From the NCBI GenBank assembly GCA_028279595.1, contig JANQNK010000004.1:128001-192000 (forward strand): a stretch of 64,000 nucleotides of DNA. Direction: 5' to 3'. The stretch comes from Thermoplasmatota archaeon. Lineage in GTDB: Archaea > Thermoplasmatota > JAKEGO01. Shown here in pieces: positions 9,001 to 24,448 of this stretch. A program made the translations under genes and the position numbers. The stretch's first letter is position 1; every line of letters starts with the position of its first letter. Under the pieces are notes generated by a model. It ran no database searches. It was not told where the DNA came from and worked only from the letters and a program-made list of their open reading frames with translations.

Positions 9001-12000
9001 GTCCGTTCTGCCTTGTCCTGATGGTACTGATGATAGGGCTGTTGGGTGTTGCCTCCGGCGAGCAGCTCACGCTCGCCGACGTGGACCTTGACGGAGCGGA
9101 CGACGTTGCCGTAGGATTCCCCGATGATGACTCCATTGGTTACGCGACTGGACCCCTGTCACGGGGAGAAGTGGCACTGACCACCGTCGAGGGCCAGGCA
9201 GGCTCGGGATACGGTTACGCCCTCGCATCGACGAACGGGACACTGGCCGTCATGGCGCATTCCAATGCATCCACGGTCGTCTACCTCTACGATGCGTTCG
9301 GCACCTGGGACAGCTTCGATTCGAACATATCGACGATCTCGCCCTCCGGAGTGAACTCGCTCGCTGTCGGGGACTACGATGGCGATGACGAGGTCGACAT
9401 CGCGGTCGCTTCATCGGCAGGCACCGTTCGGGTGTACTTCGGCCCCGAGTACTCATCGACCATGACGATCGATGTTCCCGCGTCCGGGGACATCGCCCTG
9501 GTGCTCGAGGACATCGACGGCTCCGGCGAGGACGAGCTGGTGGTCGGAGTACCGTCCATCGGCATCGTCCTGATATTCGAAGGAGGGGTCGATTACCAGA
9601 CCCAGTTGATCGCGCCCGACCTGGAGGACATGGAGTCCGGCATCAACCTGACATGGGAGGACGACGGCCTCATGCTCGCGAGACTGGGCGAGATCGAGAA
9701 CGGAGACGGCTCTGACGGCATGGTTGGTTGGTGGACCACGGACAACAGGGACGGGAACGAGAACGGTTTGATCCGTCTCCTCGACGGAGACATTGGAAGC
9801 TGGAAGGTCAGCCCAGACAGCGGAGCACCGACCGTCGGTTTCGGCTCGAACCGGGACACAATGGTCCAGGACGGGGAGAACAAGGCATATTCCGGCACAC
9901 TTTGCAGTCCATCGTTCGAGATACCCGACAACGTGGAATACCTCCACCTGTGGTACCGTTACGTCCTGGCCAGCTTCGATAGATGGGAGGGCGTCTATGT
10001 CGATATCTACAACGATGTGAACAACAACAAGCTCCTCAGTGTACATCAGAGGAGGTTCGGTGACAACGGTAACTGGAGAACCTACGAGGAGTCGAAGATC
10101 ATCGAGGTGTCGAGCTTCCAGGGATACACTGTCTACTTCGGCGGAGAACTGGACGGCGACGACGGACGTGATTCCGCCCTCATAACCATGGACGACATCT
10201 ACTTCTCCGACGAAGAGGGCAACATAGCCCGCAAGGACACGGGACACTACGTTTCCTATCCCCAGACGGTGGGATTCAACATAACGTCGGTGGTTCCGAT
10301 ATGGGACGCTGACCTGAACGGCGAGGAGATAGAGATCAGGGCGAGGGCGTCATCGAGCGTTCCCTGGACCTCGATCGAACCGCTCGAGAACTCGGTATTG
10401 AACGAGCTGTCCGTCGCCGGGACCGCCTTCGAGTACAACATCACATTGAGGTCGGATAACATCGGCATCAGCCCGGTACTTAGGAGCCTGACCTTCGAGC
10501 TCATGTCCGCTCCGGGAGCGGTCATCAAGGGCAAGGCCAACACCGGCTTCGGGTCCACGCTGAAGGTGTCGGTGGACCATGACACGCTAGTCGTTGGTTC
10601 CCCGACCTACTTCACGAAGGGATCGGCGTTCGGTTACGACCTTCCCTCCATCGGGGACAGTCTCACGCTCGCAAACACGACGTTCACCGTGGAAACGAAC
10701 GAACTCGATGCCGGTCTTGGTACGGGAGTCGCCCTGGCTGACCTGACCGGGGACGGTATGGCAGAGGTCCTGGTCTCGGCGCCAATGGCGAGGTTTAAGG
10801 CCGACGACGGTGGAGCGGTATACGGGTTCTCGCAGGCATCCGGAGACCTTACGATCAAGGAGTCGGAGGTCCAGTATGCCGGCGACGGTGGACTCGGGAC
10901 AGCGATGGCATCGTGCTGGGACAGGATCGCCGTCCTCGAGGGCGAGACCGTGAGCATCATCGAGGGATGGCACGCCCTCCGTTTCATCACGACGGACGCG
11001 AACTCCTTCCCCGACAATTCGATCTCGATACCGATCTCCATAGAGAACCTGTTCGACGCCGAACAGATCGACCTCGGATTGATACTTCCAGGCAACTGGA
11101 CCGGCCATTTCGAGGACGGTGGCACGGTCACATCGGTTTCTGTAGGCGCTGGAACGACCAAGAACCTGACCCTGGTGGTCGATATCCCCGAGACGGCGTC
11201 GGACGACGACTTCGAGGTCTCACTTATCGGGATCGGTGCGGACGGGATCGCTTACAACGTCTCCACGCTCACTGTGGACGTGTTCATCCCGGACATCTAT
11301 CCGAACTATCTCTTCATGCTCAGGGGCGACGGATGGAACGCCACCGACAATTCACGTCACCTGATAGCGGGAGAGGTCGCCAACATAACGGTGGAGTTCT
11401 ACACGATCAGCGATTCGCCGCTTCCCGAGATAACGATCACTTTCTTCGAGGAGTACAATACAGGTTCGTCGTGGGACTATTCGGTCATCGACAACTTCAC
11501 GGTACAGCCGGTCCCGGGGGAGAGCACATGGCTCAGCACCGACTGGACACCCTTCACGGACGGCGAGTTCTACATCGGCGCGATGATCGACTCGCTCGAG
11601 ACCGTGCTTGAGACTGACGAGGACAATGAGATCAAGTACAAGAGGGACATACTCGACGACATTCCTGAAAGCGTTTACACCATCAGCGGAAAGGTGTTCG
11701 ACACCGACAACACGACAGTGAACGCATCGATAACCGTCTCCGGACCTAGGGGATACATGGACTCGTTCACCTCGAGCGATTCCGGAGATTACTCCACCGT
11801 GATCGACAACAGCAGCTATTTCGAGGGCGAGGTGTTCTGGATCAACGCGACCCTTTCCGGACCTCCCGGTTCTGCATCGGAGTCGATCGCACTCTACTCA
11901 GAGGATGTAGGTTCCGAGATCGATCTCGACCTCCACTTCGATGGGGTCGACGTCGCGCTGGAAGAATTCGACGACGCCACAGGGACGGTCGATATCTCGA

Positions 12001-15000
12001 TCCTGAGGTACGGTGACGGGATGGCCGATGACACTGTGGTGGCGGGACTCCCGGTCACCCTGGAGATCGAGGTAAAGAACAGGGGAACCGACGATGTGTC
12101 AGTGGACGCGTCCTTCTGGACGAACACGTCCATCGGTTCCGTGGTGAGGACGGTGGACGCGCTGTCCGCGGACAGGATTAATATCTCGTGGACCCCGGCC
12201 TCGGCGGGAACATACGACCTATACGTCCAGCTCAATGCGAGCGGTGACATATATTCCGCCAATGACATGGGTTCCAGACTGTCGGTGGTATGCATTCCGA
12301 GGACGCCTTCGATGGACATCTGGATCAACGGAACGGTATTTGACACGGAGGGAGACCCACTCTCCGGCGTGCAGGTGCCTGTCGAGAACCTTGGTTCGTC
12401 ATGGATGAACAGTTCGATAATCACGAACGGCACTGGCTGGTTCTCGACCCTGATCAACATGTCATCATATCTCGAGGGAGACAGGATCGACATCAACGTG
12501 TCGCACAGCGGGAACTGGGGGAACACGACGATCCACCTCTTCTCGTACGACGGCGACCACGACGTGACCCTCCTGCTGAGGAGGTACGGGGTCGGACTCA
12601 CGGGCGACGCTTCCGCGAAGGTAATGCCGTGGGACATGGCGATGTATCAGCTCAACCTCTCGAGCGGTGCGAACTTCAACGACACGTTCACCGTAAGGGC
12701 ATCCGGGGTCCCGTCCGGCTGGGACCACTACTTCCTCTACGGCAATGGTTCCATGGTGAGTCCGTTCTCTTGGGGCCTTGATCCCGATGGTTCGATCGAG
12801 CTTTACCTGGTGATGTGGACAGAGACCGATCCATGGCTGGTCCTTCCGGACACGTACGCTGTTACGGTGAGGGCTTTCATGGACTCTCATCCTACCACAT
12901 CGGTCGACCTCATGGTCTCGCTGGAGGTCCTTCCGACATACAACTTCACACTGACGGGCGTGAACACCAGCTGGTCGGTGGCGCCCAATGGAACGGTCAT
13001 GTTCGAGTATGACCTGACGAACTGGGCGAACGGCAACGTCTCCGTCCTCGTGACGGCGTTCTCTGACGAGCCCGATGTCGGGCTGGTCTACCCGAGCTCG
13101 ATCTCGCTCGGTTACGGCGATACGGAGACCCTTTTCATAGAGGCCACTGCCCCACCTCTGTCGTCGGATATCGAGGCGGGATCCGAGATAGAGATCACCC
13201 TCAAGGTGGCAGCGCTCAACGATTCCAAGATGGACAGATGGGCGACGCCGGTCATGACCGTCGAGGGCATCGTCGCCCTTGAGTGGTCCGGGACCATGGC
13301 CGAGGAGGCGGTCCCGGGCGATGAGGCGGTCTACGAACTGGTCCTTACGAACGTAGGCAATGCCGACTTCTCAGGGAACGTCTCGATCGGGGGTGCCGAT
13401 TTCTATACATGGGTGTACCCGGACGGTGTGGACCTCGGACCTGGAGATTCGGAGACGTTCACGATATTCGCCGAGGCTGACTTCGAGGATATAGGCGGCG
13501 ACAGCCTGCCGGCGGGAACGATGCTCGACTTCAACGTCACGGTCGGCAACGTTACCGCGGACCTTACGCTCACGTCGCTATCGAAGCACTCGATCACGAT
13601 ATCGAGTGACGCGACCGACACCTGGGCGCACCACACGGACGCCCAGACGTTCGAGGTCGTCATCAGGAACAAGGGCAACGTTCCGGAGGACGTCATCATG
13701 TACATGGCCGGAGAGAACACCTCATGGGTGTCCCTCGCGATGGACGACTTCACGCTCGGAATCAACGAGGTGCTCAAGTTCAACCTGACGATCGACCCCG
13801 ATGGTCCGGGGGTTTGCGACATTGCGATCTACGGATCGAGCGATGACGCGGTGTCGAACTCTCTCAATGTGTTCGTGACCTTCGACGATCGGACCGATCA
13901 GGTGCTGGTATATTCACCAGCCTTCATGATAACCGACGATGCGGAGGAGTTCGACTCCTGCGGCGACGCCGTGGTATGGAGGAGCTCGGGCGGGATCCAC
14001 GTCGATGACGGCACCGGGGCGATATCCCTCGGGGATGGATCTCTGCCGACCGTCGGAACCTACGGCGACCTCGTTGGAGTATCGTGGTTCGAGGATGGAT
14101 CTGTGATGTTCGCAACGTCGGCCGGGGATTACGCGACCCAGGAGGTCTCCGACCTGACGCCCGTCCGTTTGGAGGTATCGCCAGGCCCGGTAAGGGCCGT
14201 GGCCATCGACACGGGTTCGGCTATCAAGGTGCTGACGTTCAGCGGCGGGAACTGGACCCAGGCCCACTATCCGCACGGCGACTTCGCCCTGATACCCCAT
14301 GGTGATGAGCTCTATCTACTCCACATCAATTCAACGAACGCCTCCATCAGAACACTCCCGGACGGCGATGTGGTCGAGGAGCTAGACCTCGACGAGGTCC
14401 ACCAGGTCCTGGTCGATGACGCCATCGGGATCCTGGGGGAATACGAGGGCGCGGGCGTTCTCATCTGGGGCGAGCCCGGGGACTGGACAACGACCAAGGG
14501 GCCGGTCTGGGGAGAGGCCCTGATCTCGACCGGACAGTGTCCGATCGCAGTCGGATACACTACTGGGGAGATGGTCCTCAAGAGCGACTGCGGACGCTTC
14601 ACCATGCCGATGAGGCCAACCTGGCCCCTGGCGATGATGGACGGCGGTTATCTGCCCCCGGTACCGACATCAGACCTTGGCGGCGGCGATGCGGTCTATT
14701 ACATCTCCGGTGACTCGCTCTACATGATGCCGCTCGACATGATCGTACGACCCGACGAGACCGGTGAGACCTTCGAGGTGTTCGTGTATGGCAACGCAGA
14801 GGGGTTGACCCCCATCATCGACGGCATGGCGAGCATCGTCTCCTCGGATGTCAACACTACGACTGGTATCGTCTCGGTGACGATCGTATCGGACCCGGTC
14901 GAGGCGGGTGAATCATATCCGCTCTCCATCTCGCTCATGGATGGCAGCGGATCCACCAATGGGCTCGGGTTCATAATGATCCCCAGGAGCTACGTCCAGA

Positions 15001-16583
15001 TAGACGTCCTGTCGGTCGAAGGGGACGTCATGCCTGGTGACACTTCATCCGTGGAGTTCGAGGTCGTCAACAACGGGACCGGGACGGAGAGCATGCTGAT
15101 CAAGTTCACACTACCGGACGGATGGACCGCCGACCATGACGTGTCCATCAGCCTGGATGCCGGAGAGACGGACACCTTCACGGTCGACCTCACACTACTC
15201 ACCGAGGAGGACGGTTCGAACATCGTGCTCTATCTCAACGGGTCCGAGGACAGGAGTTTCGACTTCACCCTCGGGACCCTGACACCGATGCCGTCGGCCG
15301 TCATCCTGTCACTCGACCAGGCGGTCTCGTTCAGGAACGTCAACTTCATCGCGGAGGAGGGGTACGGCGAGAACTGGACCTGGACGTTCGGCGACGGCAG
15401 CGTCGTGGAGGGCATGGAGATAAGTCACGCCTTCGGAAGACCTGGCGAGTACATGGTCACACTGACGGTCACGAACTCCGTCGGAGTGGACCGGGCCTAC
15501 AAGAACGTCACGATTACCAACCTCGTTCCCGAGGTGAGGATAGGGCCGGTCTCGGATGCCGAGTCAGGCTCGGTGGTCCAGATAACGGCGGCGGGAACCG
15601 TGGACAGAGACGGGACCATCGTCTCGTACACCTGGACGTTCAGCGACGGCGGTTCGGCCTCCGGAGCGGTGGTCAGCCACAAGTTCTCGACGACGGGGAT
15701 CAATGTGATCACCCTCAACGTCACCGACGAGCTCGGCGGCACGAACTGGACCACCTACAGTTTCAATGTGACATCCAAGGACGATGGTTCGGCGCTCGGA
15801 GACCTGGCAACGAAGATCGGTCTCGTCGTCGGGATCCTCATAATACTGATACTGATAATACTCGTTCTGATCGGGAAGATCGGACTGAAGAGGAAGGCCG
15901 CACCGGTGAAGCAGGAGCCCGTAGAGAAGAAGCCGCCTGCGAAGAAGCCCCGTGCGGGCGAGGGTCCACCGAAGAAGAAGGCGTCCCGTGGACCGCCCGT
16001 TGCCGGAGCTCCGGTCAAGCGGAAGGTCAGGAAGCCGGTTCCCGAGAAGGGGACGCCCCAGGATGAGGAGGCCTTCGCCGAGGTCCCGCCACCGGAAGAG
16101 GCCCCTCCGGCGGATGAAGTGCCCGAGACACCTCCGGAGGACGAGAAGCCATCCGCCTTCGTTCCAATGGGAAAGAAGGAGAAACCGGTCCTTCCGACAG
16201 GGCCAGCCGAGGAGGAGACCCCGGCCCCGGTGGAAGAAAGGGCGAGCGCGTTCACCACGAAGGACGCCCGGAAGAAACCCGTTCTCCCGACGGCGGTGGA
16301 TGAGCCGCCAGCACCTGAGGAGGCTCCGACACCGCCTCCCGCGGAGGAGCCCCCAGCGTGGGAGCCGCCCACGCCAGCTCCTGAGCCACCTGTGATGGAG
16401 CCGGAACCTGCTCCGGTCGCACCGGCACCGATCGTGGAGGAGCCACCAGTCGAAGAGACCACCCCGCCCATGGACGAACCTCCTGAGGAGGAGAAGGTGG
16501 ACGAGGGCGAGATCTCACAGCAGCTCGACGACCTCGAAGCCCTTATGAAGAAGCTCGACGGTTACACCGAGGAAGAGGAGTGA
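1..16583 (+). CDS. Giant cell-surface glycoprotein/adhesin (>5503 aa, 5'-truncated by the window): FG-GAP repeats, PA14, CARDB/NEW3-like Ig folds, PKD domains, three hydrophobic segments, Pro/Glu-rich tail
   Basis: The frame is open from the window start, with no stop upstream of ATG 72. Motifs seen: FG-GAP (DMNDDNVTDLIVGAP, DLTGDGMAEVLVSAP); PA14 (GLVGSYY...IDFNWG...FSIRWTG); PKD (WTFGDG); many N-x-S/T sequons. TM segments lie at ~8421-8483, ~9003-9059 and ~15815-15875. Confidence 0.9.
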   Translation, partial: TPVSADFGDDILFAEIGGETGPDMIVADAEAGTGGEVYILLDPDEGNLTVSDADITLTGAAGSMFGSGVSFTDMNDDNVTDLIVGAPMADNGNGTVYLFLGPIANGSYQNANITLDAPEDTLGFGASVQASEINGDTRPDIAIASIYQPGGNGLVGSYYDDIDLSELMYVQVDDDIDFNWGLGAPTNLSADTFSIRWTGLLYCEETGEHTFWVDADDAIRVYIDGDMVIDAWGGAPNASEGVYLLEGYHDIKVEYADDTLDAYVNLNWTTAYSSGPVPTANLVPSLSSPLFIVNGKTNLSNLEVSDILVGEVMGSTFGSEMIDSDEGLVVGSWSTGHVFIHDADTAGDTETYYAYPQYKGSGDETGEPVSDLWGDDNNYYEVERGNSEDDLEIDTFYIYQLPAIARQYGEIAGVNLLVRWSTDQYYIWQGNGDMNYVQFAIEGDAYEDLVQPTRTTTEATITGNLYNKGVDTYGEIEDLNIHFNNGDVGSSADSVYFEFILVEIEVSLPVMDEYVDGPASFGMSLASYGDDLYVGAPYAGPMTNDHELVGMSGGGSAYSFDMTSLPDAAAEAGGILFGTPGSEFGSSLATADGMLAIGAPEAFLADDTGAVFLAEDMDLSGSGLCPYGSGNAGTVVAMNGTLLAAGNPETDTIHLIDITDAPTMEVDRSDSVHVPTSEQYTIDISSTGVLAITSYTIPAWDSDFNGTDWIRMSAGDLDMDVDINTAPGHDTPVSIVGRSLDGLTCGLDVIWFRTMEDSFSVDDLHIVRADGKAFASPEGGVAGEVSTVRPFVRYSGPGTTATDVEISTGGSYLNRTVPLPSDLMVLGDNLTVSSYGTEAWRATDQMGSSYTTISLTESHYSWRVIVNGSYLLQRSGSVGLRFYTPVALTFDQVSIARASGDDRNIFDETLTEVSFGGMPYYRAAAGEVFVSDWTDFSIDPDGIYAVSFHTQTNSTNELTYFYGSGIGETYYRTGDYRSDPDWSDNAPSSSAFSAYLISVQSETLPSVSGIVSIPWYSPVGWNSIGWTATTPGGSSVRGSIRTADDVGGMPANWSAWRGPSGEDPYLAPSAMTETSSWIQYRAELVTSDGMAPILHSFYLGTTQGDAVQDEWTTIWDPTWGTGDITGIEMQYRLDSLWTGSVGYHNITVGLGGETGTFMVEMESNAPNGVVTISGRTEDIQAYALTGAAISLSNLRTGSMLNTTSDGSGDYSLDLSSLPGGYIDGEAFIINATHMGSFGTEAFTIYSEDGDRTIDIALELEGLEIFVDLQDTPYGQRFIRMNRESDGAETDTPVEGEDTLLSARIGNRGQLDAKNVTLGFFDNGTIIGAEQKLNITSGDVVEIQQWWTPTPGWTNLSVKAWGMWNTEHYFWADLWDSPIDWGGAVDFTTEAYNTPDDLNTWWIDGADPNSSMDGWDWLPFAYGSTDEDYTWLGEPSGEADYVEAGQIEIRIGRYSGWGNSGMDGESSGAFGTQFYIEPDAFAEWTGGKAILRFVWDWDQWSGTEERCSLLGRIRTRNDTLWLGSDVSTAYYPNSSAAIYGKNEDENTNQDFWDQNFVQDVTSIFNQSGHYYLDLGAWVDDTSRKGEGASASFDDISLEFVREVTDQFPDNDEGWMNVTVLPNQPVTPFNASVQFIDNYNLTGLRVNFTSYTTSGSWSLDDRANGTGHYDIGIPAINYTEADMLNIVVDDVLDGVRFLGSYQTVLYSYESPASIVIPLFSYGFSMTPVSTHAVLSPGDSFNYSLMVMSDSNVGVDIYLNVTGLPAGWDVVLSGSNVNKSGGQYTVWVPAYGSVTVTVFLELDEDPLSSLPGNYSWSVDGGAWFGKDSITMLSDVIPVYTFEISDIDVETIVPGGTVFYNVTVLSTGNVDNIIDFNLTAPDNWTVHIPNTALPLAASTSENIVFYITAPDWPGKNMTQGTDYNLTLDGASRHSADADMKAVDLEIGSIHDIRLEGDDMECEPGIPVFYPINITNHGNVRETVTLMLEWNATIGNVSTPTPIVLDPGEWYILDIVFTPSPDYNVSTADRVLEINASYGSALLNARFTVERVYDLHFIVPDTIDTVIGQETEFEVTIENRGNGDATYKIGVSNGIPSTPFMELVTWDPRTLGVKMTPDTEGWSNVTLSLILDSETIGQIAVPIKASRGYIDFVMGDSEVVINDVDAYDISPSTMDMAYISAGNAYYLPANGTAVDLGATNATDIAITNLGSAFIALAKPDAVMVHEVSGNAPYNIVETWNMSVGGTMVEMDSSTYTTDGNAVYLVWIAPGGVKFRSLSNWQSKDWNTVANIYSGTATAIDLVASGSRINIAWGASNGVHYERVSYLGSEDIAPVRVANVAPPTSVALSNPMDLHLAWASNGVVSYATYNGSWSSATRLREGFEVAGAVAGDITSFAISEDFVSVVHPPQGFWQASERGDPSSPTIVWDDGMYVYYLDGDLHVNEIGLPFLMDWGEEAEIDVTLYNRGSRNMDVSPTASVHEDWTADIGSDPVPKGGTGMITLEVKAPYTISSEDSTDVVISLDGIEMVRIPARALGGEVHEVSVEGDLAATPGETLETTLTFTNTGNSHENITIELIVPEGWEMVLDSDSLSIPAGGTGAVGVTVTAPIDTIAQDDLSVNLTFAGTTTVVMAPVAVAPMAPHIGSVNVTTGLSGDMIWMNATVFRALSVEWFLPNGTELSGTEVVGAFDIPGTAVVQLVATNEAGVESTFVNVTIGNRLPTGVDFATGKLKAGESIMLEANGTDPEGTLLTFTWTIEGEEYVGTSVDYRFEEKGTYKVLLTAVDEHGGATEVSHNVVVTGGEEDGVAGMDMIDLMLIISLILLILILLLLLVKKRKAPVAEKALKDESMFEMVHRLWPQYVDTVRDLDPKVADILEQAKLLNYDETTNVLTLGLAEGEDFKKAVMPEVLEVMERGFHDLHGTRVFLFIESGMGAAPKEESGPTLTLVKDEPPKKGGAAEPGAVKKGPRKRKAKRPQAKNGPQQEGGAKDAPKKKVARPKKKGPKGPFCLVLMVLMIGLLGVASGEQLTLADVDLDGADDVAVGFPDDDSIGYATGPLSRGEVALTTVEGQAGSGYGYALASTNGTLAVMAHSNASTVVYLYDAFGTWDSFDSNISTISPSGVNSLAVGDYDGDDEVDIAVASSAGTVRVYFGPEYSSTMTIDVPASGDIALVLEDIDGSGEDELVVGVPSIGIVLIFEGGVDYQTQLIAPDLEDMESGINLTWEDDGLMLARLGEIENGDGSDGMVGWWTTDNRDGNENGLIRLLDGDIGSWKVSPDSGAPTVGFGSNRDTMVQDGENKAYSGTLCSPSFEIPDNVEYLHLWYRYVLASFDRWEGVYVDIYNDVNNNKLLSVHQRRFGDNGNWRTYEESKIIEVSSFQGYTVYFGGELDGDDGRDSALITMDDIYFSDEEGNIARKDTGHYVSYPQTVGFNITSVVPIWDADLNGEEIEIRARASSSVPWTSIEPLENSVLNELSVAGTAFEYNITLRSDNIGISPVLRSLTFELMSAPGAVIKGKANTGFGSTLKVSVDHDTLVVGSPTYFTKGSAFGYDLPSIGDSLTLANTTFTVETNELDAGLGTGVALADLTGDGMAEVLVSAPMARFKADDGGAVYGFSQASGDLTIKESEVQYAGDGGLGTAMASCWDRIAVLEGETVSIIEGWHALRFITTDANSFPDNSISIPISIENLFDAEQIDLGLILPGNWTGHFEDGGTVTSVSVGAGTTKNLTLVVDIPETASDDDFEVSLIGIGADGIAYNVSTLTVDVFIPDIYPNYLFMLRGDGWNATDNSRHLIAGEVANITVEFYTISDSPLPEITITFFEEYNTGSSWDYSVIDNFTVQPVPGESTWLSTDWTPFTDGEFYIGAMIDSLETVLETDEDNEIKYKRDILDDIPESVYTISGKVFDTDNTTVNASITVSGPRGYMDSFTSSDSGDYSTVIDNSSYFEGEVFWINATLSGPPGSASESIALYSEDVGSEIDLDLHFDGVDVALEEFDDATGTVDISILRYGDGMADDTVVAGLPVTLEIEVKNRGTDDVSVDASFWTNTSIGSVVRTVDALSADRINISWTPASAGTYDLYVQLNASGDIYSANDMGSRLSVVCIPRTPSMDIWINGTVFDTEGDPLSGVQVPVENLGSSWMNSSIITNGTGWFSTLINMSSYLEGDRIDINVSHSGNWGNTTIHLFSYDGDHDVTLLLRRYGVGLTGDASAKVMPWDMAMYQLNLSSGANFNDTFTVRASGVPSGWDHYFLYGNGSMVSPFSWGLDPDGSIELYLVMWTETDPWLVLPDTYAVTVRAFMDSHPTTSVDLMVSLEVLPTYNFTLTGVNTSWSVAPNGTVMFEYDLTNWANGNVSVLVTAFSDEPDVGLVYPSSISLGYGDTETLFIEATAPPLSSDIEAGSEIEITLKVAALNDSKMDRWATPVMTVEGIVALEWSGTMAEEAVPGDEAVYELVLTNVGNADFSGNVSIGGADFYTWVYPDGVDLGPGDSETFTIFAEADFEDIGGDSLPAGTMLDFNVTVGNVTADLTLTSLSKHSITISSDATDTWAHHTDAQTFEVVIRNKGNVPEDVIMYMAGENTSWVSLAMDDFTLGINEVLKFNLTIDPDGPGVCDIAIYGSSDDAVSNSLNVFVTFDDRTDQVLVYSPAFMITDDAEEFDSCGDAVVWRSSGGIHVDDGTGAISLGDGSLPTVGTYGDLVGVSWFEDGSVMFATSAGDYATQEVSDLTPVRLEVSPGPVRAVAIDTGSAIKVLTFSGGNWTQAHYPHGDFALIPHGDELYLLHINSTNASIRTLPDGDVVEELDLDEVHQVLVDDAIGILGEYEGAGVLIWGEPGDWTTTKGPVWGEALISTGQCPIAVGYTTGEMVLKSDCGRFTMPMRPTWPLAMMDGGYLPPVPTSDLGGGDAVYYISGDSLYMMPLDMIVRPDETGETFEVFVYGNAEGLTPIIDGMASIVSSDVNTTTGIVSVTIVSDPVEAGESYPLSISLMDGSGSTNGLGFIMIPRSYVQIDVLSVEGDVMPGDTSSVEFEVVNNGTGTESMLIKFTLPDGWTADHDVSISLDAGETDTFTVDLTLLTEEDGSNIVLYLNGSEDRSFDFTLGTLTPMPSAVILSLDQAVSFRNVNFIAEEGYGENWTWTFGDGSVVEGMEISHAFGRPGEYMVTLTVTNSVGVDRAYKNVTITNLVPEVRIGPVSDAESGSVVQITAAGTVDRDGTIVSYTWTFSDGGSASGAVVSHKFSTTGINVITLNVTDELGGTNWTTYSFNVTSKDDGSALGDLATKIGLVVGILIILILIILVLIGKIGLKRKAAPVKQEPVEKKPPAKKPRAGEGPPKKKASRGPPVAGAPVKRKVRKPVPEKGTPQDEEAFAEVPPPEEAPPADEVPETPPEDEKPSAFVPMGKKEKPVLPTGPAEEETPAPVEERASAFTTKDARKKPVLPTAVDEPPAPEEAPTPPPAEEPPAWEPPTPAPEPPVMEPEPAPVAPAPIVEEPPVEETTPPMDEPPEEEKVDEGEISQQLDDLEALMKKLDGYTEEEE

Positions 16584-17920
16584 ACTTGAGGCCGGAAACC
16601 GCCTTCGCGGGCAGGCTGCTCATGGACGGAGAGTTGGTCAGCGGAGCGGTCGAGGTCACCGACGGGCGGATCACGGACATCGTGAAGACCTCCGACGCCG
16701 AGGACGTCCTCGACTTCGGGGACGCGCTCGTCCTACCGGGCGGCGTCGACATGCACGTCCATTTCAGGGACCCGGGTTACACACACAAGGAGGATTTCCT
16801 TACAGGGAGTTCGGCAGCCGTCTTTGGCGGAACTACAACTGTGGTTGACATGCCGAACACCATACCGTTCATCGCGGACAGGACGACCTTCGTCGAGAAG
16901 GCGGGAGCGATGGCCGACTCCTGGGTCGACTTCGGGCTCGCGTCCGCGTTGGCAGCGGGAAGGGACCCGGTGGCGATGGCGGACCTGGCGGTATGCTACA
17001 AGCTCTTCATGGCCTCCACGACAGGTGTCGAGGGCGGCGACTACGAGGAATCCTTGCACAGGGCGGTGGGCGTCGCGAAGCCCATTGTGGTGCACGCTGA
17101 AGACCCTGGACAGTTCAGGGCTTCCCCCGGGGTCGACCTGGAGGACCATTCGCGTGCGCGGCCTTTCATCGCCGAGGTCGAGGGGATACGGCGGATCTAC
17201 TCGCTGGCTTCCCATCAGATACCGGCTCCGAGCGTGCATCCCGCCCAGGGAGAGAACCATCCCAACTTCTGGATCCACATCGCGCATCTCACGTCCGCGG
17301 AGGGAGCCGACGTCGTGAGAGGGTTGAGACCGGCGGGTTTCACCGCCGAGGTCACGCCCCACCATCTGTTCCTCGATTCGTCCATGGAGCTCGGGACTTT
17401 GGGAAAGGTCAACCCCCCTCTGAGGACGGTCAACGACCGATCCGCCCTCTGGAGGGCTCTCGGTGATGGAACTATCGATGCGGTCGCATCCGATCACGCG
17501 CCACATCTCCCCGAGGAGAAGGACACGGATTTCGCCGATGCCCCGGCGGGTATCCCCGGGGTGGAGACATTGTATCCTCTGATGCTCCATTCCGTCAAAA
17601 GGGACATGCTCCCATTGAACCGTGTCGTCGATGCCGTCGCCACCAGACCGGCAGAGATCCTCGGGATCCCGAAGGGAAAGGTCGAGGTCGGTTACGATGC
17701 GGACCTCGCGATCTTCGATTCCAGCAACGTCACCGAGATCAAGGGGGAGGATCTCCATTCAAGGTGCGGATGGACGCCGTTCGATGGCATGGAGGCGATA
17801 TTCCCGGTCGCGACCGTGGTCTGCGGCAGGATGCACCAACGCGACGGAGCACTGTTCGGGGATCCGGAGGGCAAGATGCTGATACAGCCGCAGCATAGCC
17901 GGACCATGAACGGAGGATAG
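16580..17920 (+). CDS. pyrC: Dihydroorotase (amidohydrolase superfamily)
   Basis: Motifs DMHVHFRDPG, GGTTTVVDMPNT, EVTPHHL, KVNPPLR and SDHAPH. The GTG start overlaps the upstream stop (GTGA). Confidence 0.85.
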   Translation: MNLRPETAFAGRLLMDGELVSGAVEVTDGRITDIVKTSDAEDVLDFGDALVLPGGVDMHVHFRDPGYTHKEDFLTGSSAAVFGGTTTVVDMPNTIPFIADRTTFVEKAGAMADSWVDFGLASALAAGRDPVAMADLAVCYKLFMASTTGVEGGDYEESLHRAVGVAKPIVVHAEDPGQFRASPGVDLEDHSRARPFIAEVEGIRRIYSLASHQIPAPSVHPAQGENHPNFWIHIAHLTSAEGADVVRGLRPAGFTAEVTPHHLFLDSSMELGTLGKVNPPLRTVNDRSALWRALGDGTIDAVASDHAPHLPEEKDTDFADAPAGIPGVETLYPLMLHSVKRDMLPLNRVVDAVATRPAEILGIPKGKVEVGYDADLAIFDSSNVTEIKGEDLHSRCGWTPFDGMEAIFPVATVVCGRMHQRDGALFGDPEGKMLIQPQHSRTMNGG

Positions 17921-17941
17921 GATATCTCCGAATCCACAACG

Positions 17942-18008
17942 CTTAAGAACAGGATTTCATTAGTGGTCCCACGCGGGCCTGTAGCTCAGCACGGCAGAGC
18001 AGATCGGC
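17942..18008 (+). repeat. Direct repeat of the tRNA-Lys promoter/leader plus the 5' half of the tRNA (partial tRNA copy 17975-18008)
   Basis: cttaagaac...attagtggtcccacgcgggcctgtagctcagcacggcagagc(a)gatcggc recurs at 18107-18172. Confidence 0.9.
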
Positions 18009-18139
18009 CGGCCTTTTTCAGAAAAAGGGGCGGCGAAAAAGGGACCGTTCTTCAACTCTTGATCCCGCATACCGAACGGGCCAGAACGGCAGTATGTTGC
18101 AAAACTCTTAAGAACGGGATGTTATTAGTGGTCCCACGC

Positions 18140-18213
18140 GGGCCTGTAGCTCAGCACGGCAGAGCGATCGGCTCTTAACCGATCGGTCGGGGGTTCGAAT
18201 CCCTCCAGGCCCG
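18140..18213 (+). tRNA. tRNA-Lys(CTT)
   Basis: Acceptor stem GGGCCTG/CAGGCCC, D-arm TAGCTCAG..GG..AGAGC, anticodon arm ATCGG-CTCTTAA-CCGAT, T-loop GTTCGAATC. No intron and no encoded CCA. Confidence 0.97.
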
Positions 18214-18519
18214 TTCATTTCTTAGTGATTTCCAATTGGAGAACGGGCCATAGGAAGCGAACCCCGGAACGGGCGGGGTTGTTCGGAAATATGATGGAAT
18301 TATCTTTATAGAATATTTCCGAACGAGGATGAACCGAAGGATCATCCGTTCGAATCCCTCCAGGCCCGTTTTTCATTATTCAATGTTAGGAGGGCCTGGA
18401 GAGGATGGGAACCCCTTGGTCAAACGGGGTTGTTTGTACCGATCGAATGTGGAATCCAATACAGGCACAAACCCGGATGATGCGAAGCATCATCACGGCG
18501 GATCCCTCCAGGCCCGTTC
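18199..18519 (+). repeat. tRNA-linked repeat array: the tRNA 3' end is repeated at 18348-18370 and 18502-18519, separated by structured ~130-nt spacers
   Basis: atccctccaggcccgtt occurs at 18199, 18354 and 18502 (periods 155 and 148 bp). Both spacers carry equivalent hairpins. Confidence 0.9.
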
Positions 18520-18679
18520 CCGATGCCGATCCAATTCGTCGTATGACGATTTGTTAACACAAACTGCGTAAATATTATGATTATATGCAGAAAAATTAAC
18601 TTTTAAGTCGAAATAAAAATCATTACAGTAGTAAGTAAGGTATTAATACAACGTCCATCGCTTTCTCTGAATAGGACAC

Positions 18680-21600
18680 GTGCAGGTGAACAGCATGAGG
18701 TTTGGTAGTTTAGTTATCGTTGGGATTATGCTTGCAATGGCGCTCACGCTAGTAGTGGGTGTGGAGGGTGCCGACATATATGTGGACGATGATTGGCCCG
18801 GAGCCGATTATGAGACCATACAGGACGCCCTCGACAACTCCCTGGATGGGGACACCATCTATGTGTATGCGGGAACGTACAATGAGACATGTACCGTCAA
18901 TGCCCAGGTCGAGATCTACGGCAACGGGACCGGTGAGACGATGGTCGACGGGGACCCTGACGGGAACATGAGCGGCGATAGGGGTTTCTATATCGCCGAT
19001 GACAAGGTCCTCCTGCAGGGACTCTCGGTCACGGGACATCCCGATGGGATATATATCGACAATAGCGCAGACGTCACGATCAATGATTGTGAGGTCTATG
19101 GCGGAAATTCCGGTATTTACATTTACCAATCACCACGATGCTGGGTTCTGAACAGCACTGTCCACAGTACACTGTACGGCATGTGGGTATACGAAAGTAA
19201 CGATGTGCATCTATACGAGAATTACATTACAAACGTTAGCAATTCGGGCGTGAGACCGTACTTCTCGAACGACCTGCTGATGGCCTACAACAACATCACC
19301 GACACGTGGATGGCGGCCAACGTCTACATGGCCAGACATGCTGTGATCAGGGGCAACGACATGCATTTCAACAATGCAGGCATCATCGATTATTACGGTT
19401 ACGAGAACGTGTTCTCGAACAACAACCTAACCGGAGACGGGAAGACCTACGGCGTACAACTGTACTACACTTACAATGCGTTCATCGGAACCAACACAAT
19501 GGTTGGCAGCGGTTTGATGATCAACGGAGGGAACTACACAAACCACTATCACAAGATCACGCTTGATAACACCGTCAATGGCCTTCCGCTGGAGTACAGG
19601 ACGGAGGATACTTCCGAACTGTTGAACAGCAACTACGGACAGGTCATCTTGGTCGGATGCGAGGATTTCATTGTCGAGAACCAGACCTTCGCCAACACCT
19701 CCGCTGGTGTCCTGCTCTTTTTCACGAATACGTCGAAGGTTAGGAACTGTACGTTCGACAATATCATCTACGGTATCTATTCTTTGGGATCCGACGAGAT
19801 AACGGTGAAGAAGTGCAATTTCACGGAAATCAACTACGGAATCAAAATGAACTTCGACGATAACGACTGGACGTTCGACCTGTTGACGTTCGATCAACTT
19901 GAGTTCAGTGCGATCAAGGCCTACATGTCGGATATCATCGATATTAAGGACCTTATACTCAATGGCTCGGACAATTATGCCATCGATCTGTACAATTGCG
20001 ATTTCGTAACGATGAGCGACCTCGTGATGTCGAACATTACCAGCCATGCTGTGTACGCCCAGTTTGTCCGTATCTTCTCCATCATGGACGTTTCCATCGA
20101 CGGAGTACACGATGGCATTCATCTCGAACACGTCAGGGGTAGCATCATCGAGCGGGTGAGCGTGAACGGGGCCGTCAATGGTATATCCATCGCCCAGGAT
20201 GGGAACACAACAGTCCGCGACTGTGACCTAGCGGTGAACACCACCGGAATATATCTTGATTCGGTATTCGATGGGACATTCTGGAACAACACGATGGTAG
20301 GCGGTGGGTTGATCCTCAACGGCGGCAACATGGACGAGGTCAACACGCACGACATTCCGACGAACAACACGTACGATTCAAAACCCATCATGTACGTAGC
20401 GAATGGAACGGACCTCCTGCTTGACGGGGATTACGCTCAGGTGATACTCGTGAACAGCACGAATGTCACATTAAGCGGACAGATCGTTGACGGGTTCATA
20501 CCTCTGATGGCGTACTATTCCTCGCATTGCAGGATAACCGATGTCCAGTACACCGGTGCGCTCGAGCTCGCGGCCATCGTGTACTATTCCGACAACTTCA
20601 CCTTCGATAATGGATCGTGGACCGATAACTACGGCGGCATCGCGGTAATTGGCTGCGACAACACTACAGTGGAGTACAATCTGTTCGAGAACAATACGGT
20701 GGAGGCATTCGCTTCCTTCAAGTCGAAGTCCAACCTCGTCTACATGAACGAGTTCATCGACAATGGGGCCTCGCAGGTCAGCGACGCCAGCACCTATGGC
20801 GGTAATATGTGGGACAACGGCACGATCGGCAACTACTGGACGGACTACATGGGCTACGATTACGATGGCGATGGGATCGGCAATAATTCGCATCCGATCC
20901 GGGTGATAAGCGGTCCAGCGCAGTACGATAACTATCCGTGGGGCGAGTTCGCGCCGAAGCTGACCAACTGCTCTGTCTCACCCAAGAATGGGACTGCGAC
21001 CACCACGTACACATACTACGTCAAGTACAGCGATTACGAGGGACGCGCTGCAGAGGTCGTCAGGGTCTACATCGATGGTAAGCATTACAATATGACCGCG
21101 AACGGCACCGGCGACTGGACCACGGGATGGTGGTTCACGTTCACGACCGATGAGAACATCACCCTCTCCAAGGGAGCCCACCTCATGGACTTCACCGCCT
21201 ACGATGGGATCCGTTGGGAGGGCCACAACTGCAGTGCAGGGCCCTATGTCAACGTACCGGCTCTTATCTTGAACATCAGTGCCGATCCGATGAGCGGGGC
21301 GAGCACCGAGACCTACACGTTCTATGCGGATTTCTACGACTTCGAGAACGCGACGGCCGAGGAGATGACGATCTCCATCAATGGAGGGGGGTCTCAGGAT
21401 ATGTGGAAGTACAATTCCAGTGACGACATCTCGTTCGATGGGATCACGTACATGTACATCACGACTCTGGATCCCGGCAATCACACCTTCAACCTCTCGG
21501 CACACGACACATGGGAGTGGACATACTCCGTCAACAACACGGGCCCTGTCGTGAACCATCCGCCAGAACTCCCGATGTGGATGGTGGACCCCTCATGGGG

Positions 21601-24448
21601 GGACAACAGCACGAACTTCACCTTCATGGTATCATACAATGACAACGAGACCGAGGAAGCGACCTTGATCTACATCGACTTCGACTGGGGCTCGTACATG
21701 ATGGACCTGAACGGATCGTGTCCATGCACGGGTGGGGCCCAATACCTCTACAATACGACGCTGCCATTCGGGTACCACAACTTCAGCTTCAGAGCATACG
21801 ATGGCGTCGAATGGACGTCCACGGTCATCGACCATGTCAAGGTGAACCAGATACCCGAGATCATGGATGGTTCGTTGTATCCGCTGGAGGGGAATTCCTC
21901 CATGCTATTCACGTTCAATGTGACCTATCTAGACCTGGACGGCGACGAGCCAGAATGGGTGCATGTCAACCTCAACAACGATTCGTACCTGATGAGTCAG
22001 GTCGATGCGATGGACACGAACTACACGAACGCCACGCTCTACGAATACGAGACGTACCTGCTTGCGGGCAATTACACCTACAACTTCTCCGCGAGCGATG
22101 GATATGTCACCATATGGCTTGCCGGCGGCGACATCAGGGTGAACCAGTCAGACGTTCCAGTCAAACCGATCGCTTACATCGACGAGTTATCACCGAACCC
22201 GGCGAGGTCGTTCGACCTGGTCCATTTCCTGGGCCACGGGAGCGGTGGGAACATCACGGAATGGAACTGGACCTCGGATATCGATGGAATGCTACACAAC
22301 GGCCCCGAGTACAATTCAAGTGACCTCAGTTACGGGGACCACAATATCTCGTTCACCGTCATGAACGAGGATGAGCTGTGGAGCGACCCGGTCGTTGTCA
22401 TGCTGTACGTGAACAACCCGCCCGAGCTGTCCGACATGTCGGTCGACCCCGAGTGGGGCACCGACGAGACCGTGTTCAACTTCACCGTCATCTACTCCGA
22501 CGTCGAGGACGTCAACGCGACCGAAGTCGACCTGAACATCGGAGGAACGATCCACATCATGGATATCGCCGATTGGTGTCCGTGTGGTCCGAATACTACC
22601 TACACCCTGATTACAACGCTCGATTTCGGTGAGTATACATTCAACTTCAGTGCGTTCGACGGCATGGAGTGGGTCTGGAGCCCGGACGAGACATTGAAGG
22701 TCGACCAGGCACCGGAACTCTCCGGGTTCAGTATCGAGCCGCTCGGTGGGAACACCTCGACGGTCATCTACTTCAACATTACCTACACGGATGCGGACGA
22801 CGATGCGCCCGAGTACATCGATGTGATGATCGACGGTGACGACTATCCGATGACCAAGGTCGAATCCGGTGACATGGACTACACTGACGGTGTGGAATAC
22901 ACATACTTCGCGCTGATCAGCGAGGGTAACCACACATACTACGTCGAAGCGAGTGACGGATGGATCTCCGTCAGGAGCGACCAGAGGACTGGCTATCTCG
23001 AGGAGGGCAACGAGGAGACGTTCATCCTCGAGGACACGTCGTACGTCGGGAACGCCACGTTCACCATCACATGGGAGGATGAGGAGGACCACACCGGAGC
23101 GGAGAACGAGGGCGACACCTTCAAGCTGACCATCACCGACCCGAACGGGACGGAGATGAACGCGACCGCGACTAACGAGCATGGCGAGCCGGGTGAGATC
23201 ACCATCGTCTTCGAGTACGGTGAGAACGAGACGGTCACCGGCGATTGGACGATCGTCGTCGAGCTTGTCGACGCCGGCGAACAGGAGGCGGTCGGATTCC
23301 CGGTGAACACATCCGATTTCGCGAACAACTTCACGCTGCTTACACCCGCCACACCGCTGGCGGTCGAGGAGGCCGAAGGCCCGGTCAAACCGATCGCATA
23401 CATCGATTCCATAACCCCGAACCCCGCAGAGCCAGGTCAGAAGGTCACGTTCGTCGGGCATGGGACCGGCGGGACCATCGTGGACTATGAGTGGATGTCG
23501 AACATCGACGACGCAATGGAGCTCAGCGACCAGGACATGTTCAACAAGAGCACCCTGTCAGTGGGCACCCACAACATCACCCTGCGTGTGCGCAACGACG
23601 ACGGCCTTTGGAGCGACACGGTGATGGAGCAGCTCATCGTCAGGGGAACGGCTCCACTTCCCGATCTCAAGATCGATACGATAACCATGGTTCCCTCAGA
23701 GCCGAAGGCGGACGAGGAGGTCTCCATCGTCATCAACCTCGAGAACATCGGAAATGCAAGCGCCGAATTCACCATTGGAGTGTACTATCACGATGCGAAC
23801 ACGTCATACATGACCATCGGTGACCTCACCCTGATCGAGACATTCAATATAACGATCGGAGCCGACGGCTCGGATTCGTACACGGCATACTGGGACGCCG
23901 TCGAGGGCGAGTGGGAGATAGTGATCTGGGGCGATCCGGAGGACGAAGTAGTCGAGCTCCGGAAGAACAACAACGTCAAGGACAAGGACATCACGGTATC
24001 CAAGTCGACCGAGAAGGATGAGGACAAGGCGGAGGGCATCGACGCCACCGTCGGGTTCATCATGCTCCTTATCATCCTCGGCGTCGTAGCTGCGATCTTC
24101 TTCCTGATGAGGAAGGCTCCCGAAGGGAAACCACCTGCAGAGGGACCTGAGGACCGGGGCTGGGATAGAGATGAGGACCTCGGTGAGGAGAGGACCGGTG
24201 AGAGCCCCATGCATGAAGAGGGAGGCACCGAGGGCGAGAACCCGATGTACGAGGAGGAGGGCGCCGCTGACGCACCTGACGATCCGGATGCCGGAGACTC
24301 CAAGGCCCCGGAGGATGGCATCGATGACGACCGCAGTCGACGGAAGTCCATCGGGTCCCCTGCAAGCTACGAGGAGAACTTCAACCCGGAAGGCCCGGAC
24401 GATGCGGCCCCTGCCCAGGACTACAACTCATCGAGATCGAACTCGTAA
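18680..24448 (+). CDS. Large membrane-anchored surface protein: signal peptide, right-handed beta-helix (NosD/CASH-like), Ig/PKD-like repeats, CARDB, C-terminal TM and acidic tail
   Basis: N-terminal hydrophobic signal; IYVDDD..ADY.TIQDA start; GNYWTDY.G.D.DGDGIG motif; PDLKI CARDB motif; TM VGFIMLLIILGVVAAIFFLMRK. Confidence 0.88.
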   Translation: MQVNSMRFGSLVIVGIMLAMALTLVVGVEGADIYVDDDWPGADYETIQDALDNSLDGDTIYVYAGTYNETCTVNAQVEIYGNGTGETMVDGDPDGNMSGDRGFYIADDKVLLQGLSVTGHPDGIYIDNSADVTINDCEVYGGNSGIYIYQSPRCWVLNSTVHSTLYGMWVYESNDVHLYENYITNVSNSGVRPYFSNDLLMAYNNITDTWMAANVYMARHAVIRGNDMHFNNAGIIDYYGYENVFSNNNLTGDGKTYGVQLYYTYNAFIGTNTMVGSGLMINGGNYTNHYHKITLDNTVNGLPLEYRTEDTSELLNSNYGQVILVGCEDFIVENQTFANTSAGVLLFFTNTSKVRNCTFDNIIYGIYSLGSDEITVKKCNFTEINYGIKMNFDDNDWTFDLLTFDQLEFSAIKAYMSDIIDIKDLILNGSDNYAIDLYNCDFVTMSDLVMSNITSHAVYAQFVRIFSIMDVSIDGVHDGIHLEHVRGSIIERVSVNGAVNGISIAQDGNTTVRDCDLAVNTTGIYLDSVFDGTFWNNTMVGGGLILNGGNMDEVNTHDIPTNNTYDSKPIMYVANGTDLLLDGDYAQVILVNSTNVTLSGQIVDGFIPLMAYYSSHCRITDVQYTGALELAAIVYYSDNFTFDNGSWTDNYGGIAVIGCDNTTVEYNLFENNTVEAFASFKSKSNLVYMNEFIDNGASQVSDASTYGGNMWDNGTIGNYWTDYMGYDYDGDGIGNNSHPIRVISGPAQYDNYPWGEFAPKLTNCSVSPKNGTATTTYTYYVKYSDYEGRAAEVVRVYIDGKHYNMTANGTGDWTTGWWFTFTTDENITLSKGAHLMDFTAYDGIRWEGHNCSAGPYVNVPALILNISADPMSGASTETYTFYADFYDFENATAEEMTISINGGGSQDMWKYNSSDDISFDGITYMYITTLDPGNHTFNLSAHDTWEWTYSVNNTGPVVNHPPELPMWMVDPSWGDNSTNFTFMVSYNDNETEEATLIYIDFDWGSYMMDLNGSCPCTGGAQYLYNTTLPFGYHNFSFRAYDGVEWTSTVIDHVKVNQIPEIMDGSLYPLEGNSSMLFTFNVTYLDLDGDEPEWVHVNLNNDSYLMSQVDAMDTNYTNATLYEYETYLLAGNYTYNFSASDGYVTIWLAGGDIRVNQSDVPVKPIAYIDELSPNPARSFDLVHFLGHGSGGNITEWNWTSDIDGMLHNGPEYNSSDLSYGDHNISFTVMNEDELWSDPVVVMLYVNNPPELSDMSVDPEWGTDETVFNFTVIYSDVEDVNATEVDLNIGGTIHIMDIADWCPCGPNTTYTLITTLDFGEYTFNFSAFDGMEWVWSPDETLKVDQAPELSGFSIEPLGGNTSTVIYFNITYTDADDDAPEYIDVMIDGDDYPMTKVESGDMDYTDGVEYTYFALISEGNHTYYVEASDGWISVRSDQRTGYLEEGNEETFILEDTSYVGNATFTITWEDEEDHTGAENEGDTFKLTITDPNGTEMNATATNEHGEPGEITIVFEYGENETVTGDWTIVVELVDAGEQEAVGFPVNTSDFANNFTLLTPATPLAVEEAEGPVKPIAYIDSITPNPAEPGQKVTFVGHGTGGTIVDYEWMSNIDDAMELSDQDMFNKSTLSVGTHNITLRVRNDDGLWSDTVMEQLIVRGTAPLPDLKIDTITMVPSEPKADEEVSIVINLENIGNASAEFTIGVYYHDANTSYMTIGDLTLIETFNITIGADGSDSYTAYWDAVEGEWEIVIWGDPEDEVVELRKNNNVKDKDITVSKSTEKDEDKAEGIDATVGFIMLLIILGVVAAIFFLMRKAPEGKPPAEGPEDRGWDRDEDLGEERTGESPMHEEGGTEGENPMYEEEGAADAPDDPDAGDSKAPEDGIDDDRSRRKSIGSPASYEENFNPEGPDDAAPAQDYNSSRSNS

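Follow-up and report, generated by a model that had tools for sequence, protein, structure and literature searches.

The tRNA-linked repeats (TLRs) of Escherichia coli are the closest described counterparts of the structures reported here. They lie behind tRNA and rRNA genes, repeat the 3' end of the gene in their last 18-19 bp and number 22 in ten loci; they have been known since 1978 with their origin and function unexplained, no function being known except for rrA/rrB/rrF, which lie behind 5S rRNA, and for the processed small RNAs RrA/B/F the 3' repeat has been proposed to be a processing signal (PMC8144298). The same paper is our source for the work of Egan & Landy 1978 and Rudd 1999 and for the 178-bp tyrT/tyrV repeats with RttR. 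The present study concerns a 64,000-nucleotide stretch of a Thermoplasmatota genome (the window; contig JANQNK010000004.1 of assembly GCA_028279595.1, positions 128,001 to 192,000), in which the sole tRNA gene, tRNA-Lys(CTT) at 18140-18214, is followed by two units of 155 bp and 148 bp that follow the same plan and belong to a family spread across the genome. The assembly that holds the window is 2.29 Mb in size and 86% complete, and the closest relatives of the flanking genes come from metagenome-assembled genomes (MAGs) of Thermoplasmatota. This archaeal family is a variant or counterpart of the known but unexplained TLR class.

A TLR-like array behind an archaeal tRNA-Lys gene

Each unit comprises a T-rich linker, the T-arm and 3' acceptor strand of the tRNA in inverted orientation (the mirror), three hairpins (A, B and C) and, in direct orientation, a perfect repeat of the tRNA tail (the direct copy). 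The copied part of tRNA-Lys comprises its final 22 nt, 18193-18214, from the T-loop to the discriminator and one further base. The inverted tail copy sets in 22-26 nt past the preceding tail and continues via the T-loop into the T-stem 5' strand, and the mirror of unit 1 supplies the 5' strand of both the closing helix P1 and hairpin A. The array reads as follows:

18140..18214, + strand: tRNA-Lys(CTT), the anchor gene, with ends at 18139/18140 and 18213/18214 by ARAGORN and Rfam (RF00005, 68 bits)
18215..18240, + strand: unit 1 linker, T-rich, with TTGGAG at its end
18241..18266, + strand: unit 1 mirror, the inverted acceptor 3' strand, T-arm and trailer TTC, reading GAACGGGCC..GGAAGCGAACCCC from 18241 (alignment score 30)
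18260..18280, + strand: unit 1 hairpin A (AACCCC-N9-GGGGTT), in which a direct copy of the T-stem 5' strand pairs with the mirrored one
18281..18324, + strand: unit 1 hairpin B, a perfect 12-bp stem with a family-conserved base (GTTCG/CGAAC) and a covarying upper stem
18327..18347, + strand: unit 1 hairpin C (GAA triloop), best conserved among the modules of the family
18348..18369, + strand: unit 1 direct tail copy, 22/22 nt against 18193-18214, identical from G53 of the T-arm
18370..18391, + strand: unit 2 linker (TTTTTCATT...TTAGGAG)
18392..18415, + strand: unit 2 mirror (GGGCCTGGAG-A-GGAT..GAACCCC), its inverted copy reading GGGCCTGGAGAGGATGGGAACCCC from 18392 (score 34; P1 -32.7 kcal/mol)
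18410-18431, 18432-18472 and 18476-18494, + strand: unit 2 hairpins A, B and C, the last being GATGATGC-GAA-GCATCATC
18502..18517, + strand: unit 2 direct tail copy, 16/16 nt, identical from A59 of the T-loop

The original prediction, made from the letters of the window, had proposed this ordered architecture with each unit able to form a four-way junction, and its coordinates and the positions of hairpins A, B and C all held on re-checking. Scored against the reverse complement of the tRNA tail, the mirrors of unit 1 and unit 2 reach 30 and 34, where shuffled sequences average about 13 and have maxima of 24 and 20, respectively. The TTGGAG that ends the unit 1 linker recurs in units behind other tRNAs. 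ARAGORN and RF00005 recognise a cloverleaf only in the true tRNA-Lys, so that by model the units are not tRNA pseudogenes, and their left arm is an inverted tail rather than the 5' part of a tRNA. Two mechanically called open reading frames (ORFs), at 17963-18178 and 18329-18571, have no Pfam match.

In the K-12 record we compared the tyrV and lysT operons with this plan. Each 178-bp tyrV unit contains GGGGAAGGATGAGAAGCTTCGA, which mirrors the T-arm of tRNA-Tyr (score 32; shuffles reach at most 24); a direct AAGGTTCGA, hairpins and AATCCTTCCCCCACCACCA come next, in that order, and the unit folds into three hairpins inside a mirror/tail helix. The 98-100-nt units of the lysT operon have the same design of mirror, hairpins and tail, and its 156-nt units carry a perfect 13-nt T-arm mirror. 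Since mirror and three hairpins are also present in E. coli TLRs, the whole design, and not just the terminal repeat, is common to both, which makes the kinship with the E. coli tyrT repeats closer than had been claimed for this locus. The inverted T-arm/acceptor copy of E. coli TLRs is absent from the description of these repeats in PMC8144298.

The archaeal units thus share with TLRs a place directly behind a stable-RNA gene, at one to five units per locus (two at tRNA-Lys); a unit 3' end that equals the 3' end of the gene (18-19 nt in E. coli; 22 and 16 nt here and 13-22 nt in others); the mirror, direct copy and three-hairpin junction of the tyrT- and lysT-operon TLRs; and mini-hairpins of the GCGAAGC type, which occur in E. 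coli TLRs too. They differ in having an archaeal host, in forming several unit types at about half of the tRNA genes, in their high divergence, whereas E. coli copies are near-identical in tandem, and in the T-tract after every unit. E. coli TLRs are transcribed, whereas the archaeal units are known from DNA sequence alone. No sequence homology to TLRs was detected over 16000-20500 with Rfam, including RtT RF00391, to which the tyrT TLR belongs by sequence, the tRNA and chance matches being all that was returned at E <= 1.

A structured family tailored to its tRNA genes

Around half of this genome's tRNA genes carry some type of unit. Roughly 16 of the 42 ARAGORN tRNA genes have a copy of their own 3' end 97-227 nt downstream, several of them two, and about 20 of the 42 have an inverted tail copy 20-35 nt downstream. 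We searched for the three-hairpin class, termed type I, with an nhmmer profile and with a covariance model, R1, which returned 18 and 15 copies in this genome; all are on the same strand as a tRNA gene and directly behind it, with two exceptions, a copy at a contig end and another that lies distal to an integrase element. Further tRNAs are followed by shorter units with a single hairpin or by units of a third type. Elsewhere, R1 found 7 units in the one other genome of the family and 1-3 in each of five further genomes of the phylum, type-I matches being present in 7 of 151 sampled phylum genomes. Every one of the 10 other-genome matches off contig edges directly follows a gene for tRNA-His, -Arg, -Gly, -Ala, -Leu or -Ser, so the search for further copies behind tRNAs, which had been proposed as a check on the tRNA-Lys array, was borne out.

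Every unit repeats its own tRNA's tail in direct as well as inverted form, and the linker motifs and hairpins B and C are homologous across units behind different tRNAs (covariance-model E-values of 1e-23 to 1e-28). The paralogues are gene-less and about 100-160 bp long, and their alignment shows one order of parts. A T-rich linker, often with TTGGAG at its end, leads into a mirror that covers the 3' strand of the acceptor, the 3' strand of the T-stem, the T-loop and the 5' strand of the T-stem; 7-10 nt of loop, the direct T-stem 5' strand (GGGGTT), hairpins B and C, and the rest of the T-loop with the tail follow in that order. It follows that hairpin A is formed by the T-stem 5' strand and the mirror of that strand, and that the T-loop is interrupted precisely at the place of hairpins B and C. 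The inverted copy spans the last 25-33 bases of the neighbouring tRNA, including 3-4 trailer bases, and where a tRNA gene encodes CCA this is present in both the direct copy and the mirror. In the cases that are informative on this point (Leu-TAA, Leu-TAG, Gly-TCC, Thr-CGT and Lys unit 1) the 3-4 trailer bases with which the mirror pairs are those of the upstream copy and not those downstream, so that tail, linker and mirror form a single contiguous palindrome. Over their 13-22 nt the direct copies show no mismatch, in contrast to mirrors with a complementarity of about 75-85%, and in all units the identity block begins inside the T-loop.

Folding of the two tRNA-Lys units gave the predicted four-way junction in both cases, closed by a helix of mirror and tail. 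With RNA parameters the z-score is -4.5 for each unit from mirror to tail copy and -3.4 for the whole of unit 2, and with DNA parameters it is -4.4 to -5.8 on both strands, 0 of 200 shuffles being as stable; the hairpin of tail, linker and mirror directly after the tRNA folds with a z-score of -3.9. Across 12 paralogous units, 94.4% of the pairing cells in hairpins A-C are paired, whereas shuffling lowers this share to 78% and sliding the partner to about 40%, and two-sided changes occur in 16 of 24 pairs; 0 of 500 shuffles matched the observed covariation measures. Because this pairing is kept by cores that are just 50-70% identical, the structure has long been under selection, in agreement with the earlier suggestion, based on the two units alone, that their compensatory changes reflect selection on structure. 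The cores of units 1 and 2 are 53% identical, within the range of units behind other tRNAs; being no closer to each other than to those, the two did not arise by recent tandem duplication.

Several further observations concern how units spread and how completely they are sampled. In a relative, G001, the units behind His, behind Arg-TCT and on contig C182 are 81-86% alike, whereas the Arg-TCT units of G001 and of this genome are less than 62% alike, which indicates that cores spread or are homogenised within a genome. Assemblies tend to break in or at units, as seen in G001 contigs C92, C74 and C182, at the end of C15 in this genome and in the metagenome contigs of one run, and the G001 tRNA-His array is divided over two contigs; copy numbers in MAGs are therefore probably underestimated. 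The contigs of the source sample likewise break at tRNA-Lys and at units, and they yielded no joints. A type-I unit at C14:117309-117450, located between an integrase element and an older unit behind tRNA-Arg-TCG, has a mirror and a direct copy that agree with each other (tail GGTCGAATCCCCTCTTCCGCA) and match no tRNA in the assembly, from which it follows that arms can travel with a unit. The tail of this unit matches elsewhere in a coding region only, and we took this for a chance match.

Counterparts on the 5' side lie upstream of tRNA-Arg-CCT (C5:36210-36346), tRNA-Asp-GTC (C4:143705-143817) and tRNA-Leu-TAG (on C14). They consist of a copy of the first 13-23 nt of the tRNA and then CACGG-hairpin-CCTGCTCGG, which is the downstream units' hairpin C module in inverted orientation, and the one at Arg-CCT includes about 85 nt of promoter and leader. 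Two tRNA labels were uncertain: with introns allowed, ARAGORN calls C4:163734-163840, labelled 'tRNA-Glu(CTC)', an intron-containing tRNA-Tyr(GTA), and C7:48510-48601, labelled 'tRNA-Leu(TAG)', a tRNA-Met(CAT).

Action at the level of DNA or of RNA

The reading that we favour, tentatively and at something short of even confidence, is that the units are non-autonomous fold-back modules acting at the level of DNA, gained and lost by recombination in the segment from the T-loop to the tRNA 3' end. Over 31 units the stems contain 604 Watson-Crick pairs, 14 G.T, 3 A.C and 38 others, a G.U share of about 2% that is very rare for a structured RNA. Neither strand is preferred: + folds more stably in 12 units and - in 15 (mean difference -0.06 kcal/mol; p = 0.88). 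The closing helix, usually 14-18 bp long, pairs the discriminator, the encoded CCA and 3-4 trailer bases, and is a poor copy of the acceptor end of a tRNA. Direct copies that are perfect where mirrors are not would be expected if identity is preserved by recombination, or by occasional use as a real tRNA end, and the T-loop in which this identity sets in is the classical crossover site of tRNA-targeting integrases. The equal strands, the rarity of G.U, the inclusion of CCA and trailer in the helix and the perfect copies with a T-loop onset together favour a DNA module over an RNA that mimics tRNA.

The strongest rival, which we consider possible but on the unlikely side, holds that the units encode TLR-type RNAs: read-through transcripts from the tRNA promoter would be cut by RNase P and tRNase Z, enzymes that process tRNA ends and would act on a closing helix containing the 3' strand of the tRNA, to release a stable structured RNA of about 125 nt that could have a regulatory or sponge function. 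The orientation of the units, which is that of the tRNA in every case, and the strong covariation of the hairpins suit this proposal, as does the 14-to-3 excess of G.T over A.C in the stems, which hints that the tRNA-sense strand is selected. It is further kept alive by E. coli, where TLRs of the same design lie inside transcribed tRNA operons, rttR is an annotated RNA in the K-12 record and RrA/B/F are processed (PMC8144298). On the other side stand a closing helix that runs to 14-18 bp, not 12, and takes in discriminator, CCA and trailer, sense and antisense folds of equal stability, and a perfect identity of the direct copies that shape-reading enzymes would not need. The tRNA and each unit are followed by a T4-5 tract, which in archaea is the usual terminator, and no promoter-like box at a suitable distance was seen in the linkers, which also tells against this proposal. 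No bulge-helix-bulge splice motif was seen in the closing helix when the folds were inspected by eye. Between the two mechanisms that the original prediction had offered, small non-autonomous cassettes inserted serially at the tRNA thus fit better, and tRNA-mimic RNAs released by RNase P/Z fit less well; the cassette reading is not demonstrated, since no enzyme, circle or clean empty site was found.

Proposed recombination through tRNA tails and its alternatives

On the DNA-module reading, small modules would be gained and lost through recombination between the T-loop and the tRNA 3' end, a segment that is the classical target of integrases. Folded, the mirror and the direct copies would give a double-stranded imitation of the end of the tRNA gene, with hairpins branching at the crossover point, much as in integron attC sites and in the attP of phage CTX when folded. 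Such a module would be integrated by a recombinase provided in trans, which would restore an intact tRNA, and the spare tail left downstream could become the docking site for the next module. Mobility, the folded-site mechanism and the enzyme are what we infer here. Folded-site insertion predicts a layout of X - loop - X' - rest - X, and ongoing recombination through the tail copies predicts perfect direct copies beside diverged cores as well as an onset of identity in the T-loop.

Phage CTX carries a folded attP. Like attC and this attP, which are imperfect palindromes of 60-150 nt conserved in structure and not in sequence, and like attC in its tandem arrays beside a fixed site, the units are imperfect palindromes with a conserved fold and variable sequence that occur in tandem, and their order of site, loop, inverted site, rest and site is the expected product of folded-site insertion. 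They differ from integrons, which are known in archaea together with their attC sites (PMC9668308), in that there is no IntI-type integrase, no cassette ORF and no R''/R' consensus in the units. Sites of the attC type share one common core and have a strand preference, whereas the arms of the units are tailored to each tRNA and both strands fold equally. With respect to the RYYYAAC ... GTTRRRY boxes, the arms are tRNA-specific and only the T-loop GTTCRAA resembles GTTRRRY.

Archaeal integrases that target tRNA genes have been reviewed (PMC8371274). With integrase elements of the T-loop class the units share tandem stacking and, as in their att sites, a direct repeat of the tRNA 3' part around the insert with identity from the loop onwards; such elements are also present in this genome. 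The units differ from them in size (148-155 bp at Lys, 100-160 bp in the family), in having no genes, and in their inverted site copy and covarying hairpins, which the real elements here lack. REP/BIME/REPIN sequences and IS200/IS605 mini-elements are similarly small, gene-less, dispersed, strongly folding and conserved in structure, but they have no fixed place at tRNA ends and do not duplicate what lies next to them. In the archaeal integrase review (PMC8371274), the archaeal integron paper (PMC9668308) and further full-text searches we found nothing like these units.

The genome encodes 7 tyrosine recombinases, one XerA and six Xer-like proteins that fall below all family cut-offs; NCBIfam added nothing to these 7 beyond XerA-like assignments. 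Matches to the cognate enzymes of IS200/IS605 or REP-RAYT mini-elements, of casposon target duplications and of retroelements, namely Y1 (HUH) transposase (PF01797), Cas1 (PF01867) and reverse transcriptase (PF00078), were lacking in the 86%-complete genome. Four tyrosine-integrase elements lie at tRNA genes:

C7:7343-21935: element at tRNA-Pro-TGG
C14:112203-117595: element at tRNA-Arg-TCG
C5:29112-30743: element at tRNA-Leu-CAA
C1:10130-11760: element at tRNA-Leu-GAG

The tRNA-Pro-TGG element is 14.5 kb long, the end of the C7 integrase gene lies 8 nt from the tRNA, and its distal tail copy, the only one that is readable among these elements, starts in the T-loop. The two tRNA-Leu elements are about 90% identical. 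At tRNA-Arg-TCG the integrase element is proximal to the tRNA and two older units are distal; a TGGCCCG..CCGGTCC hairpin at the distal tail of this locus was considered as the right end of the integrase element and rejected, as it belongs to an older distal unit. The presence of integrase elements at tRNA genes makes tRNA tails active docking sites in this genome. A sediment metagenome contig (350 nt, about 87% identical) bears on gain and loss of units: it carries the tRNA and unit 1 and then a sequence resembling, at the same 10-nt offset, the flank that comes after unit 2 in the window. This likeness, which 15 of 500 shuffles equal in score (p about 0.03) and which comes from a single low-coverage contig, weakly suggests a state without unit 2 and break-points at the tail copies.

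Beyond the G.T excess and the transcription of E. coli units, several points weigh against the DNA-module reading. No recombinase linked to the units was found in this genome, 0 of the 7 tyrosine recombinases reach the integron-integrase cut-offs and none is encoded in the window, and the ends of the integrase elements of this genome show neither a mirror nor unit-like hairpins. Our searches found no circular form and, among close strains and metagenome and genome contigs, no clean empty/filled pair or orthologous empty site; in the nearest genomes the flanking amidohydrolase is at most 44% identical in amino acids. Finally, ordinary site-specific recombination does not readily account for arms tailored to 15 or more different tRNAs, since a module would damage any foreign tRNA that it entered.

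The surroundings of tRNA-Lys contain one further feature of interest:

17935..18099, + strand: diverged 165-bp duplicate of 18100-18264, comprising the promoter region and tRNA positions 1-34

Over these parts the duplicate is 92% identical (66 nt), and the remainder consists of an unrelated hairpin (CCTTTTTCAGAAAAAGG) and a T5 tract, then a decayed tail-linker-mirror (GGGACCGTTC ... GAACGGGCCAG); the duplicate may represent either a pseudo-tRNA or the gene of a 5' tRNA half. The amidohydrolase gene, 16580-17920, lies immediately 5' of tRNA-Lys, and the locus is flanked by giant ORFs at 72-16583 (5503 aa) and 18680-24448 (1922 aa). The latter, probably a surface protein, contains NosD / right-handed beta-helix domains.

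The remaining explanations are less likely than either the DNA-module or the RNA reading. The units could be a passive by-product in which a palindromic T-arm (GGTTCGAACC) provokes snap-back or template switching as the DNA is replicated and functionless X, X', X copies persist; the alternating orientation of the tail (X, X', X), the nested copies of T-stem halves (CGAACCCC / GGGGTTGTTCG / CGAACCC) and the 165-bp tandem duplication upstream are in keeping with this, but we consider it improbable given linker motifs and hairpins B and C that are homologous across tRNAs, the 94% of pairing kept at 50-70% identity, and the same architecture in other families of the phylum and in E. coli. We similarly doubt, and rather strongly, that the units are scars of integrase elements (CIME-like), with left and right arms fused, the interior lost and the products stacked by tandem accretion. 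The four elements at tRNA genes, the T-loop start of the Pro-TGG distal copy and the proximal element before two older units at tRNA-Arg-TCG speak for such a history, yet the real element ends have no mirror or hairpins, size and order of parts are uniform over 15 or more tRNAs, and scars would be expected to decay where these units keep a covarying structure; the decayed att-site scars named earlier as the alternative are accordingly unlikely. A signal that serves the host, be it a terminator, a 3'-processing hairpin or a decoy tail absorbing integrating elements, is very unlikely: the tail-linker-mirror hairpin right behind the tRNA, the T-tracts and the mirrors 20-35 nt downstream of about half of the tRNA genes would fit it, but the other half of the tRNA genes has no units, the signal recognition particle RNA and RNase P RNA genes of this genome have neither mirror nor direct units, type-I units occur in just 7 of 151 sampled phylum genomes, and termination needs no stack of multiple units.

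In summary, the TLR design is now seen in an archaeon, at about half of its tRNA genes and under strong structural selection. A design common to two domains implies either a general, undescribed way for DNA to dock onto the ends of stable-RNA genes or a general class of structured RNAs coupled to tRNA, and the many diverged archaeal copies bring comparative data and clear predictions to the TLR question. A bolder proposal, to which we give limited credence, is that TLR-like modules from E. coli to Thermoplasmatota may constitute one undescribed class of mobile DNA, gene-less cassettes that would mimic, when folded back, the end of a stable-RNA gene and be inserted at such ends by a recombinase that reads structure, with arms re-tailored to each target. 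If this were true, a single mechanism would underlie both the archaeal family described here and the E. coli TLRs, a puzzle of 45 years' standing.

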